NCBI GenBank assembly: GCA_965153355.1
Contig: OZ231126.1
Coordinates: 496,001 to 560,000 of the forward strand
Direction of reading: 5' to 3'
Source: Flaccisagitta enflata
Taxonomy: Eukaryota
DNA length: 64,000 bases
Shown: in pieces, positions 3,159-63,453 of the stretch
Layout of the letters: the number at the start of each line of letters is the position of its first letter
Position numbering within the stretch: position 1 is the first letter of the stretch
Position numbers and translations under genes: made by a program
The notes under the pieces: model-generated
Databases searched by the model: none
What the model was told of the DNA's origin: nothing
What the model saw: the letters and a program-made list of their open reading frames with translations, nothing else

Positions 3159-3466
3159 TCAATCAAACAATCAATCAATCAATCAATCAATCAATCAATC
3201 AATCAATCAATCAATCAATCAATCAATCAATCTTCCTCAACAGAATTCCTCATCGACGCCGCATTTTCCGCCTTTTGAAAAATCAATCAATCGATCAATC
3301 AATAAATCAATCAATAAATCAATCAATCAATCAATCAATCAATCAATCAATCAATCAATCAATCAATCAAATAATCAGTCAGCCAGTCAAACAGCTAAAC
3401 TGTTACTCAGTCAATCAATCAATCAATCAATCAATCAATCAATCAATCAATCAATGAAGCAATCAA
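3159..3466. repeat. (AATC)n microsatellite containing a duplicated acceptor and exon start
   Basis: 3232-3285 copies roughly 3468-3521. Confidence 0.9.
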
Positions 3467-3479
3467 TATTCCTCCACAG

Positions 3480-4139
3480 AATTCCTCATCGACGCCGAAT
3501 TTTCCGCCTTTTGAAAAATCAAAAACCGGCGTCAACAATTCTTCAACGACGCCGATAAGAATCTCCAAAGACGACAAGGAGAAGTTGAAACAGTTCGTCC
3601 GCGCGATGAGAGTCGACGACGCGCTTCGGCAGCCGAAGCGTCGACAGCAGATCGAGTGGCTGCGGCGACGCGATTTGAGAGGCGGAGGAGGAGGTGGAGG
3701 AGGAGGAGGAGGAGGGAGGATGGCGGCCACAGTGGTGTCGCCAATTGATGCTGCGCCAAAGCCTCAAAATGCATTTTTGATGGAAGAGAAGAATACAATT
3801 CAAAATGCCAGAAAACAAAAGAGCATCGATCAAACGAATTTGCAAAGATCGAAAAATATGAGCAAAAGCAGAGACAAAACTCACTCTGGCGGCGAAGTTG
3901 GGAACGAAAAACTTCGCGGAGAGAGAAAACAAAAGAACAACCTAGAAAAGAAATCGAAATCAGTTGAGAAAGAGAGGAGTAGGAAGTTTATGGTAGTAGA
4001 AAGAGAAGATCCTATAGAATATGATGACAGGATGAAGAAGGAGATGAAGGAGAGGGAGAAGGAGATGAGGATGAACTCGAGTACGACGACGACAACGACG
4101 ACGACGATGATAAAGAATGATGGGAAAGAATCGTATTGA
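3480..4139 (+). CDS. USH2A: Usherin-like probable last coding exon (cytoplasmic tail)
   Basis: cctccacag|AAT in phase 0, in frame with ORF 3585-4139. Stop TGA at 4137-4139; AATAAA at 4805-4810. Confidence 0.6.
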   Translation, partial: NSSSTPNFPPFEKSKTGVNNSSTTPIRISKDDKEKLKQFVRAMRVDDALRQPKRRQQIEWLRRRDLRGGGGGGGGGGGGRMAATVVSPIDAAPKPQNAFLMEEKNTIQNARKQKSIDQTNLQRSKNMSKSRDKTHSGGEVGNEKLRGERKQKNNLEKKSKSVEKERSRKFMVVEREDPIEYDDRMKKEMKEREKEMRMNSSTTTTTTTTMIKNDGKESY

Positions 4140-4448
4140 AATGACTGAGAGTAACCAAAAGTGGACTTTCCAACTTAAGAAAGACGGATTTGTCAAAATT
4201 AAGTTTCCATTTTGAAAAGACACGTCATATTGAAGACAATCATTGAGACGACCCATTTCGTTCGACGATCCACACGTCGCACCTTATTGGCCTACTTGGC
4301 CTTGTTTTTCTTTTGAGTCAATACCTTGTTTGTCAGTGAGGGTTCACAAGGCCCTCTTCCAGTTCCATTTATAAAAAAATTGGGATTAGCGAGGGATATC
4401 ATTAGATATGTCAAAGAAAAATTACAATTTTTTTAATCTCTTGGTGAC

Positions 4449-4605
4449 GGGAGGTCGTCACTCGCCACATCGTCAGTAAACAGAGGAAAAAAAATCTAAG
4501 TGTTTTTTATTGTAGTATTGAGAGGTCGTCACTCGCCACATCGTCAATGGAAAGATAAAAAAAAATCAAAGTGTTTAATATGATAGTATCGGGACATCGT
4601 CAATG
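4449..4605. repeat. ~71-bp tandem repeat, about 2 copies
   Basis: GAGGTCGTCACTCGCCACATCGTCA occurs twice. Confidence 0.7.
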
Positions 4606-5592
4606 CTAACATGCAAAGTGCCGTGAGATCGTTGACGACCTAATGAGAATTTGTCTAAAAAGTGTGGCGTGGAAGGTCGTTGACGATCTGCCGGCCCCTC
4701 TTCCCATTTTGAATCATGAGGGAGGGAACAATGACAATGACAATGACATTACTTCTACAATGATGTGAAAATAATTTGCAAATATCAAACGTTGGAACCA
4801 TCCTAATAAAAGTTTCCATTCGTTTTGGTTTAGTTTTTTAATTTCCTTTGAATCGGCAGGACAGTTTTTGACAAATGGCAAAATGTTTACATGAATGGTT
4901 ACATGAATTACTAATGATGGATGATTGATGAATGATGATAAAGACTTATGTTATGGATTTCAAAGCTTCACGATTCTTGCATGCATGGCTTCAAACAGTC
5001 CCTGATTCCGCAACTGAAATCCATGTTTGCATACAGATCTCAGTAAGAATCTATTTCACTTTTGATCTCTCAATTTTTATCATCTTTTCCAATAATGAAG
5101 ATTTTTATGAAGTGCATTCTCCCCCCACACAAAAGCGTAACCATTTACAAATTGCAATTTACAACTGCCTTTTTTTCCATTGCCATTATGATAACGATAA
5201 TACAAAAACATTTCCACACATATCTTTCTTCTTGATTGAACCGTTAATGAAATTCACCATTAATTAAGAAGAAGCTACAGGCGAAAAAAGTCATCAAAGG
5301 CTGATGTGATTTTCAATTCTCCATGAGTCTAATACTGATACTGTTAGGTCTATTTAGTTATGAATTAAAAATCTTCAAAATATTACGTGCTCAAAAAGCT
5401 AGTTCAATTATAAAACGCTGGGATCATGTAATTGTTTTTGTCATGACAGTTGATTTGCTCTGTCTCAAAGCCAATATTGAAATTCTAAAAAAGACAATCA
5501 ATTTAATTTTCGTTGCAAGTGTGTTTGTGAGAATATTAGATAATTACATCTGGTCTAGAGTAAGTGAGGATTTACATTTACAAGACCCTCTA

Positions 5593-6300
5593 TAGGTGGG
5601 TGGAGTGGAGTAGAGTGGCGTTAGGTGTTTTTTTTTCCATCAGGGTGGGATTTGATGGACTGTGTAGGTGGGTGGAGTGGGATAAAGTGGCGTTAGGTGT
5701 TTTTTTCCCATCAGGGTGGAATTTGATGGACTGTGTAGGTGGGTGGAGTGGGATAAAGTGGCGTTAGGTGTTTTTTTTCCATCAGGGTGGGATTTGATGG
5801 ACTGTGTAGGTGGGTGGAGTGGGATAAAGTGGCGTTAGGTGTTTTTTTCCCATCAGGGTGGGATTTGATGGACTGTGTAGGTGGGTGGAGTGGGATAAAG
5901 TGGCGTTAGGTGTTTTTTTCCCATCAGGGTGAGATTTGATGGACTGTGTAGATGGGTGGAGTGGGATAAAGTGGCGTTAGGTGTTTTTTCCCATCAGGGT
6001 GGAATTTGATGGACTGTGTAGGTGGGTGGAGTGGGATAAAGTGGCGTTAGGTGTTTTTTTCCCATCAGGGTGGGATTTGATGGACTGTGTAGGTGGGTGG
6101 AGTGGGATAAAGTAGTGTTAGGTGTTTTTTTCCCATCAGGGTGAGATTTGATGGACTGTGTAGGTGGGTGGAGTGGGATAAAGTGGCATTAGGTGTTTTT
6201 TCCCATCAGGGTGGGATTTGATGGACTGTGTAGGTGGGTGGAGTGGGATAAAGTGGCGTTAGGTGTTTCTTTCCCATCAGGGTGGGATTTGATGGACTGT
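5593..6300. repeat. 71-72-bp G-rich minisatellite, about 10 copies
   Basis: Unit TAGGTGGGTGGAGTGGGATAAAGTGGCGTTAGGTG(T)nCCATCAGGGTGGGATTTGATGGACTGTG. Confidence 0.95.
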
Positions 6301-6348
6301 GCCTCTTCCCTTCATTTCATTTTGGGTATAATTAGGGATATTGTTACT

Positions 6349-62198: not shown

Positions 62199-62298
62199 TT
62201 CGTCGTCAAGACCAAAGAAGTTCTGGAAATCGAAGACTTGAGCTGATTCTTTGATTATTCCGCCATTTTCAAATCGACCGCGTTTGGAAATGATGAAT
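62196..62298 (-). CDS. DNASE1: DNase I-like protein (copy B), penultimate exon
   Basis: atatcag|A FIISKRGRFENGGIIKESAQVFDFQNFFGLDDEL|gtaagt; same 103-nt length as the paralogous exon 28732-28834. Confidence 0.88.
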
Positions 62299-62302
62299 CT
62301 GA

Positions 62303-62618
62303 TATAATAGGGTGGTCACAAAATAGGGTCAAATTTCAAAAAATGATATACTCTAGTATTTTGCATAAATGTACAAAAAAGAAGGTTTTTCCACAAGTAG
62401 AGGTCTGAATTTGAAGAATAAACCATGGCGGCAAATATATAGGCTTCCTATGGCAATAAAAAGATCTCCATAGCAACCCTATAGTTTTGCCGACAAGGTT
62501 TCTTGTTTGATTTCACACCCCAGCTTGTGAGAAATCCTTCTTTTATTGGACAATTGTGCAAAAGGCTCAAGTATATCAATGTATAAAATTTAACCCAATT
62601 CCGGACCACCCTATTATA
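62303..62618. mobile_element. TA-type TIR MITE abutting a splice acceptor
   Basis: TATAATAGGGTGGTC ... GACCACCCTATTATA. Confidence 0.75.
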
Positions 62619-62929
62619 TAATGAGTTGTTGATTAGTTGATTCATCATTCGAACAATTCATCCCCCCCCCCACTCCTGTAGCCCCCCCCCCCCCATGTGC
62701 GCGACCCACATGGTAATCTCACACGTGGTTTAAATCTAATGCATCTATTAGTCTATTGGACTAATAGTCTATAAGTCTATCAGTCTATTAGTTTATTAGT
62801 CTCGCCATATTGTCTATCTGACTCAATGCATAAACACGTCTGTCCGTCCGCGAATAAGGTAGCCAGGTATTCGGCCGTGTTTAAGAGACGGAAATAAATC
62901 GCTTAAAATATCTAATGGAATAGTTCTTA

Positions 62930-63181
62930 GGGGGCGTTTCCAGTCAGAGATAATCGCGTTTTGAATGGGCCACTCGGTCACTCGCTATGTTCGTTCGCTC
63001 GCACCGGTCACTCCGCTCACTCGCTCCGCAGCGCTCAGCTTCACTACGCTCCGTTCACGGGCTCGCTCACTCACTTCGCTCACTCCCTTGTGGGACAGTT
63101 GAAATTCATGAATATGTGTTCACGCTGCAAAAGCGTTCAATGGGAACAAAGGCGTTATTCATCTTCACTAGAAACACGCCC
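62930..63181. mobile_element. PIF/Harbinger-type MITE inserted in a splice donor
   Basis: TTA TSD at 62927-62929 and 63182-63184. Confidence 0.8.
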
Positions 63182-63185
63182 TTAC

Positions 63186-63254
63186 CTGTCATAAGCGCAG
63201 TTACTTCTGCCTGTTGTTGTGTCAGCGTTATCAGGAATCAGCCAGTTCCAATAC
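63186..63254 (-). CDS. DNASE1: DNase I-like protein (copy B), exon WLIPD..CAYDR
   Basis: cgattag|G YWNWLIPDNADTTTGRSNCAYD AG|gtaag; compare DNase I FQWLIPDSADTTATSTNCAYDR. Confidence 0.93.
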
Positions 63255-63453
63255 CTAATCGAAATGAGATATTGCATCGTTACTAAACTGTTTCAATACC
63301 TAATTGAAATAAGATATTGCATCGTTACTAAATTGTTTTATGCTTGGCTTTTCAAACATTTTCCAATTGTGAAGAAGCCCAAGGGATTTACAAATTTTCT
63401 TTGCCCATGAGCACATCAATTTGTAACTTTCGATATTTAGTATTTAAATATAC

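Follow-up and report, generated by a model that had tools for sequence, protein, structure and literature searches.

Tandem repeats that straddle splice junctions at four neighbouring loci of Flaccisagitta enflata resemble the "mirage" minisatellites of lancelets

Six tandem repeats straddle splice junctions in a 64-kb window

We analyzed a window of 64,000 nucleotides from Flaccisagitta enflata (contig OZ231126.1, positions 496,001 to 560,000; all coordinates below are those of the window), in which an initial annotation had proposed six tandem repeats anchored on splice junctions and spread over all four of its genes. All six are present where proposed, as judged by Tandem Repeats Finder (TRF) and alignment, and in each of them the repeated unit straddles the junction, joining the edge of an exon with its splice signal and part of the intron. 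The units measure 26 to 236 bp and occur in 2 to 89 head-to-tail copies, with the surplus copies on the intron side in every case, as had been claimed. The loci concerned are a gene with an fn3 domain and a transmembrane (TM) segment, two paralogous DNase I-like loci (A and B), and a membrane-protein gene, and the exon bases included per unit number 43 at the fn3/TM acceptor, ∼31 and 15 at two donors of locus A, 70 at the membrane-protein donor, and 3 to 6 and 10 at a donor and an acceptor of gene B. We consider it probable that these arrays are minisatellites of the type known as "mirages" in lancelets, i.e., tandem duplications of a local segment that by chance includes a splice junction. 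On this view the pattern is a new and dense instance of mirage repeats, possibly outside lancelets, and not a new kind of thing.

The arrays lie in DNA that is rich in repeats throughout. The window is eukaryotic DNA with ∼40% G+C, and its 179 TRF rows merge into 104 arrays that cover 21,414 of the 64,000 bases (33.5%); 35 of these arrays are microsatellites, and 69 have a period of at least 7. Among the nonexonic genic bases, 46% fall inside arrays. Coding open reading frames (ORFs) contain tandem repeats as well, at 1304-1442, 3679-3720, 39366-39478, and 40243-40275, whose periods of 45, 3, 21, and 15 are all divisible by three. The repeat at 30764-30858 (periods 12 and 21) counts as coding if the low-complexity start of exon 5 of locus A is coding.

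Homology to DNase I backs the junctions in four of the six cases, namely, those at both DNase loci, while the junctions of the membrane-protein and fn3/TM genes were placed by ORF, phase, and splice consensus. An extremely improbable explanation is that the arrays are assembly errors or that the junctions are not true splice sites. Long arrays are difficult to assemble to the right copy number, and the latter two genes lack homology or RNA support for their junctions. Against this, the junctions of gene B fall where its similarity to DNase I ends and follow the GT-AG rule, and sequence from other runs reproduces parts of two of the arrays. Our comparison with reads and contigs covered 33860-45950 and hence two of the six cases, the exon 2 series of locus A and the membrane-protein donor. 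The segment 39200-43800 is present in two DNA runs of one organism and in several marine metagenome runs. A contig from an independent DNA run spans 34461-34648, part of the exon 2 series, and a marine metagenome contig spans 43373-43522, bridging copies 2 and 1 of the membrane-protein donor array; both are identical to the window (0 differences each), although copy number cannot be read from such short-read contigs. When the RNA run of the same study was mapped on 33860-45950, depth was ∼0 over the membrane-protein and locus A exons, and reads lay on transposon parts only.

Anatomy of the arrays

The longest array belongs to DNase I-like gene B on the minus strand. The 3′ half of this gene extends over 57227-63523, with exons at 63523-63454, 63254-63186, 62298-62196, and 57283-57227, and all its junctions are GT-AG. 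Its ORF 63447-63575 aligns with residues 182 to 209 of DNase gamma (E value, 1.3e-3), ORF 63185-63292 with residues 191 to 213 of DNase I (2.4e-5; the match begins exactly at the predicted acceptor), and ORF 62088-62315 with residues 217 to 248 of DNase I (0.72). These collinear matches, which include the CAYDR and SDHYP motifs (SDHYPIEV in the last exon), identify gene B as a member of the DNase I family.

At the donor 62196|62195 of gene B, TRF reports a minisatellite of 89.4 copies of a 47-bp unit (58044-62198). It fills 85% of the intron 62195-57284, which measures 4,912 nucleotides (∼4,150 of them array) against 620 nucleotides for the equivalent intron in locus A, in line with the proposal that such arrays inflate introns. 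The array overlaps exon 62298-62196 by 3 bases, and 5 of 6 bases match in one subfamily, making this a marginal case of straddling. The authentic donor, GTAAGT at 62195, forms the first unit. GT is kept in 78 of the 79 units that could be phased (16 with GTAAGT, 32 with GTATGT, and 30 with GTAACT or GTAACA), a conservation equal to that of other positions of the unit (96 to 98%), and variable positions +4 and +5 divide the units into subfamilies, one of which carries the weak site GTAACT. The core 21-mer of the unit occurs 84 times, always within the array, and 0 times in 100 shuffles. The first 11 intron bases at this donor are common to locus A, where the junction is without an array, indicating that the array is younger than the duplication that gave rise to A and B. 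Autocorrelation revealed no clear higher-order period in the array, and its 47-mer core had 0 matches in the Joint Genome Institute (JGI) metagenome contigs, a collection in which the presence of the host is unchecked. Two stretches inside the array, 58575-58778 and 59262-59465, lie 687 bases apart and have identical 68-amino-acid ORF translations, which points to a block duplication.

The second array of gene B is a duplication of 2.1 copies of a 45-bp unit (63245-63338, TRF) at the acceptor of exon 63254-63186. The unit consists of 10 exon bases, the acceptor, and 35 intron bases, so that the authentic acceptor at 63255|63254 is accompanied by a decoy at 63300|63299, use of which would introduce an in-frame TGA. 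The donor of the same exon is the site of a transposon insertion. A 252-bp miniature inverted-repeat transposable element (MITE) at 62930-63181, which we take to be Harbinger/Tourist-like, has terminal inverted repeats starting GGGCGT and is flanked by the target site duplication TTA (62927-62929 and 63182-63184); it sits in the donor consensus at +2 to +4 (TAA), where the sequence GTAAGG is re-created by the first G of the element. Relatives of this element are found at 30264-30564, 33036-33605, and, inverted, 36186-36329.

Gene B has a paralogue in locus A (28055-35595, minus strand), with exon 2 at 35595-35495, exon 3 at 34319-34227, exon 4 at 34060-33975, exon 5 ending at 30701, and two further exons at 28834-28732 and 28111-28055. 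Exons 3 and 4 align with residues 24 to 60 (E value, 0.015) and 59 to 106 (0.03) of DNase I, exon 5 has a single PDB match (DNase gamma, residues 118 to 144; E value, 1), and identity to gene B amounts to 82% and ∼70% in the last two exons. The DNase identity given in the initial annotation therefore stands for both loci as far as homology goes, but locus A is probably a decaying paralogue and not a working gene. We judge it to be degenerate because the middle exons (the counterparts of the GDLNADG and WLIPD..CAYDR exons of gene B) were not found in 28839-30612, because exon 28834-28732 has the donor AT (28731-28730) where gene B has GT, and because of a frame problem in exon 2.

This exon 2 is followed by a series of copies of its own end. 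Five copies of a unit made of the last ∼31 exon bases and GTAAAATA occur over 34522-35513, with junctions at 35495|35494, 35337|35336, 34577|34576, and 34523|34522, all with GT, and at 35429|35428, where GT has been lost to GA. TRF calls part of the series (35300-35470) as 1.8 copies of a 92-bp unit with a 15-bp subrepeat, and a 15-bp repeat is internal to exon 2. The conserved KFAAFNIRVLGKT of the exon lies in frame f2, while the exon-adjacent donor is in phase for frame f0 only, since the proximal copy has 10 bases more than the other copies. Frame f2 runs on through the copies without a stop, and of their donors the third (35337|35336) alone is in phase, namely, phase 0 with exon 3, which starts ILLRYD at 34319. 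The proposal that the exon-proximal copy always stays the usable one thus fails at this exon, which either belongs to a dead locus or has incorporated a distal copy. The series is split by a MITE at ∼34624-35252 in intron 2, which is presumably Stowaway-like, lies between TA dinucleotides, and has terminal inverted repeats of 26 bp that differ at 1 position.

The second array of locus A consists of 4.0 copies of a 26-bp unit with 92% matches (30612-30715, TRF) at the exon 5 donor 30701|30700. Its unit combines the last 15 bases of exon 5 (ending EPFVVRFSSPTT) with the first 11 intron bases. In copy 2 the GT has changed to GC, while copies 3 and 4 do not differ from copy 1, so that two of the three extra copies keep GT; use of a decoy donor in this unit is predicted to lead to an immediate TGA stop. 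Placement of this array in the WLIPD..CAYDR exon was considered and rejected, as the reading frame gave DTFQWEPFVVRF.

In the membrane-protein gene (minus strand), six copies of a 120- to 132-bp unit extend over 42825-43572 from the donor 43503|43502 of exon 43656-43503 (TRF call, 42838-43572, 5.9 copies of 120 bp). Each unit is made up of 70 exon bases followed by GTAAGAAC and (TATAGT)n. Four of the five extra copies (2 to 5) retain GT, and copy 6 has TT. Variants are distributed mosaically among the copies, suggesting exchange between them. A decoy donor in this array, if used, would be followed at once by the stop TAA. The gene had been named "XKR", a name that our searches do not bear out: in Pfam, searched with single ORFs, the sole match to the XK-related family came from one 57-amino-acid ORF (E value, 0.17). 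The 391-amino-acid ORF of the last exon had no Pfam match, no XKR chain in the PDB, and no informative atlas neighbor, and its homologues were limited to three unnamed ENA matches; the homologue search also returned nothing for the exon adjoining the array. Over ∼70% of the mapped intron bins of this gene, word depth exceeds that of unique sequence by factors ranging from tens to tens of thousands, as for transposons.

In the fn3/TM gene (plus strand), it is the acceptor of the last exon (3480-4139) that is duplicated. The exon-adjacent acceptor (3467-3522, AG at 3478-3479) has a decoy copy at 3231-3286 that contains a polypyrimidine tract, CAG, and 43 exon-like bases, with (ATCA)n on both sides. 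At this offset of 236 bp, 3171-3286 and 3407-3522 are identical at 110 of 116 positions, and the nonmicrosatellite core of the repeat is 3231-3286 versus 3467-3522. The exon part copied ends in AAATCAA, matching the ATCA microsatellite. From ORF and consensus, a phase 0 donor CAG|GTTGGG at 2993|2994 is predicted to join 3480 in frame; use of the upstream decoy acceptor would instead shift the frame and lead to a stop after ∼105 codons. The name "usherin" given to this gene remains unconfirmed, with one fn3 match in Pfam (E value, 1.1e-5) and nothing else. We also noticed that 3068-3081, 75 bases into the intron, matches the 14-mer of the donor 2993|2994 at 12 of 14 positions. It could be the relic of a seventh decoy or a chance match, given that 3% of control positions outside arrays match likewise.

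Together with both extra acceptors, which keep AG, the retention of GT in most donor copies agrees with the description of these arrays as rows of decoy splice sites. This raises the question of whether the decoys are functional, i.e., selected arrays of splice sites or U1-binding sites that tune splicing or transcript fate or that supply alternative exon ends. We regard this as very unlikely. It would account for the GT in nearly all 47-bp units and for an exon 2 frame in locus A that stays open through three copies to the one donor in phase. However, GT in the 47-bp units is no better kept than adjacent positions, the variation at +4 and +5 produces a whole subfamily with a weak site, the paralogous junction in locus A does without an array, and locus A otherwise looks dead. 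Moreover, decoy use would be harmful at the membrane-protein donor, the 26-bp unit, and the 45-bp acceptor copy, where translation is predicted to stop at once. The decay of the splice-site copies instead looks neutral, with GT kept like its neighbors in the 47-bp units and lost in single copies elsewhere.

Origin of the arrays and their preference for junctions

If the arrays are mirage-type minisatellites, they could have arisen as follows. The host genome would produce tandem repeats at a very high rate, and replication slippage or unequal exchange would duplicate a segment that reaches from the edge of an exon across the splice signal into the intron, often with the aid of a microsatellite close by or of microhomology over a few bases. 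The surplus copies would fall within the intron; as long as the exon-adjacent site is the one used, the spliced mRNA would be unchanged, and the duplication would therefore be invisible to selection. Repeats internal to an exon, on the other hand, would persist only with a period that is a multiple of three. The array could then grow by unequal exchange, to as many as 89 units and with one intron inflated eight-fold, and its copies may exchange sequence, acquire transposons, and decay.

Several observations fit slippage or unequal exchange combined with a filter based on splicing. The share of exon in the unit varies from case to case, showing that the breakpoints lie to either side of the junction, at no fixed distance from it, and not at the junction itself. 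Three of the units end in or beside a microsatellite or an internal repeat, with homologies at their ends between the ATCA array and the exon sequence AAATCAA, between (TATAGT)n and the exon sequence CAGTTG, and within the 15-bp repeat of exon 2 of locus A. Periods are multiples of three in all four of the arrays confined to called exons, compared with 25 of the 69 minisatellites overall. The predicted stops after decoy use, the neutral appearance of GT, and the intron sizes fit as well.

Other points weigh against this explanation. At exon 2 of locus A the proximal donor is out of phase, and the idea that the proximal site keeps the mRNA intact therefore fails there. Two of the six cases belong to locus A, which is probably dead and no longer subject to any such filter. 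Use of the authentic sites over the decoys is itself predicted from sequence. Finally, junctions appear to carry more arrays than chance placement would give. We estimated this with a founder-space model, in which every array counted as a single unit and had an equal chance of falling anywhere in a collapsed intron space of 12.9 kb that contains 28 to 40 junctions. For the 31 nonexonic intragenic minisatellites, the model predicts 1.4 to 1.9 straddlers where TRF finds 5 (P = 0.015 to 0.048), and after removal of the 14 transposon-borne arrays, which leaves 17, it predicts 0.9 to 1.25 against the same 5 (P = 0.0025 to 0.009). When the 236-bp unit is included, 6 straddlers compare with 1.25 to 2.4 expected. 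A post hoc comparison gives the lowest values: all five in situ intragenic arrays with units of at least 26 bp straddle a junction (P = 1e-5 to 5e-4). Fifteen arrays with units of that size lie in intergenic DNA. These P values are nominal, as the cutoffs were chosen post hoc, the junctions number ∼22, and the gene models were made by hand, with exon coordinates in the model off by up to 14 bases.

The excess would be expected if tandem duplications arose preferentially at exon-intron boundaries, for example, through breaks or stalled forks tied to transcription and splicing or through chromatin positioned by exons, so that mirage arrays were overproduced. We consider such a junction-biased mutational process possible but rather unlikely. 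In its favor are the 3- to 5-fold excess over the founder model, the straddling by every in situ intragenic array with longer units, and the involvement of all four loci; in addition, the lancelet literature terms the mechanism unclear and suspects a general phenomenon (Ebner and colleagues, PMC3087553). On the other side, the tests share the weaknesses just given, and the breakpoints keep no fixed distance from the junction. The transposon-like fill of ∼70% of the membrane-protein intron bins means that the old unique target was smaller, which raises the neutral expectation and weakens the excess. In present-day coordinates, furthermore, no enrichment is seen: of 22 junction 14-mers, 6 recur within 400 bases, compared with 799 of 2,000 random genic positions; for positions outside arrays the figure is 60 of 2,000. 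The enrichment over background anticipated in the initial annotation therefore appears within the window under the founder model and vanishes in present-day coordinates. The excess in this single window is suggestive and not proof, and either a junction-seeded process or slippage with selection may be at work. A stronger form of the idea holds that tandem duplication in this lineage is truly junction biased, that introns grow and new exon ends arise in large part through mirage arrays, and that exon 2 of locus A shows copies caught entering an exon; we hold this to be unlikely.

Relation to known systems and neighboring elements

Mirage repeats in lancelets have reportedly been described gene by gene since 2002, and our literature searches turned up no genome-wide count of them. 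The initial annotation had thought the pattern undescribed, but such repeats have already been named in lancelets, and a human counterpart is documented at the F7 gene (PMC3087553, PMC3902484, PMC1557585). Ebner and colleagues describe mirages as minisatellite-like tandem repeats that span an exon-intron boundary and cite Adh3 (units of 10 to 72 bp) among other loci; with units of 10 to 160 bp, mirages occur on donor and acceptor sides, leave splicing undisturbed, and are possibly general in cephalochordates, their mechanism being unclear (PMC3087553). The lancelet genes with mirages also include the globins BflGb6 and BflGb9, and PGBD5 and troponin C (TnC) were added by Pavelitz and colleagues in 2013 (PMC3902484). 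Like the lancelet mirages, which have units of 10 to ∼160 bp in 2 to 6 or more copies, the arrays described here have boundary-spanning units on both donor and acceptor sides, keep AG or GT in most copies, show signs of sequence exchange among copies, and affect several genes of one genome. They differ in that one array is far larger (89 units, 4.15 kb) and one lies in a decaying paralogue, and whereas normal splicing was shown by reverse transcription-PCR in lancelets, it is predicted here.

A similar arrangement was reported by Borensztajn and colleagues in 2006 for the 37-bp variable number of tandem repeats (VNTR) in intron 7 of human F7, which begins across the exon-intron boundary; minigenes in mammalian cells chose the upstream-most donor by 5′-to-3′ scanning (PMC1557585). 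As in the F7 VNTR, the first unit of the 47-bp, 26-bp, and 120-bp arrays lies across the boundary, so that further donors line up downstream of the authentic one. The F7 pseudosites, however, are few and identical to the authentic site, while 16 of 79 of the 47-bp units have GTAAGT. Moreover, we assume the choice of the upstream-most donor, and at exon 2 of locus A that donor is out of phase. The Rogers model, Zhuo in 2007, and Gao and Lynch in 2009 are said to attribute the gain of introns to internal tandem duplication (cited in PMC3087553). These models likewise have intragenic tandem duplications that carry splice signals and a surplus copy that becomes intronic. Here, in contrast, existing introns were lengthened and no intron was created, given that the donor and first intron bases of gene B are shared with a paralogue that lacks the array.

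With mirages at four neighboring loci, annotation of this genome combined with TRF could test whether junctions attract duplication, and it would also allow the contribution of arrays to intron size to be measured. The arrays raise the question of how the splicing machinery ignores up to ∼80 look-alike donors, and they are of practical concern in that they mislead gene predictors and splice-aware aligners.

Elsewhere in the window, we observed two families of arrays with 20- to 21-bp units, often as inverted pairs, at 6493-6805, 44120-44355, 44837-45046, 45458-45639, 52260-52468, and 56589-56804. Word depth over 43960-45950 and 40728-41535 is thousands-fold above that of unique sequence, suggesting that these arrays travel with high-copy transposons. 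Lastly, an intergenic minisatellite of ten 71-bp copies (5593-6301) contains an acceptor-like tract (TTTTTTTCCCATCAG|G) followed 24 bases on by a donor-like TAG|GTGGGT; its unit could be a repeated microexon of an unrecognized gene, or the resemblance could be due to chance.

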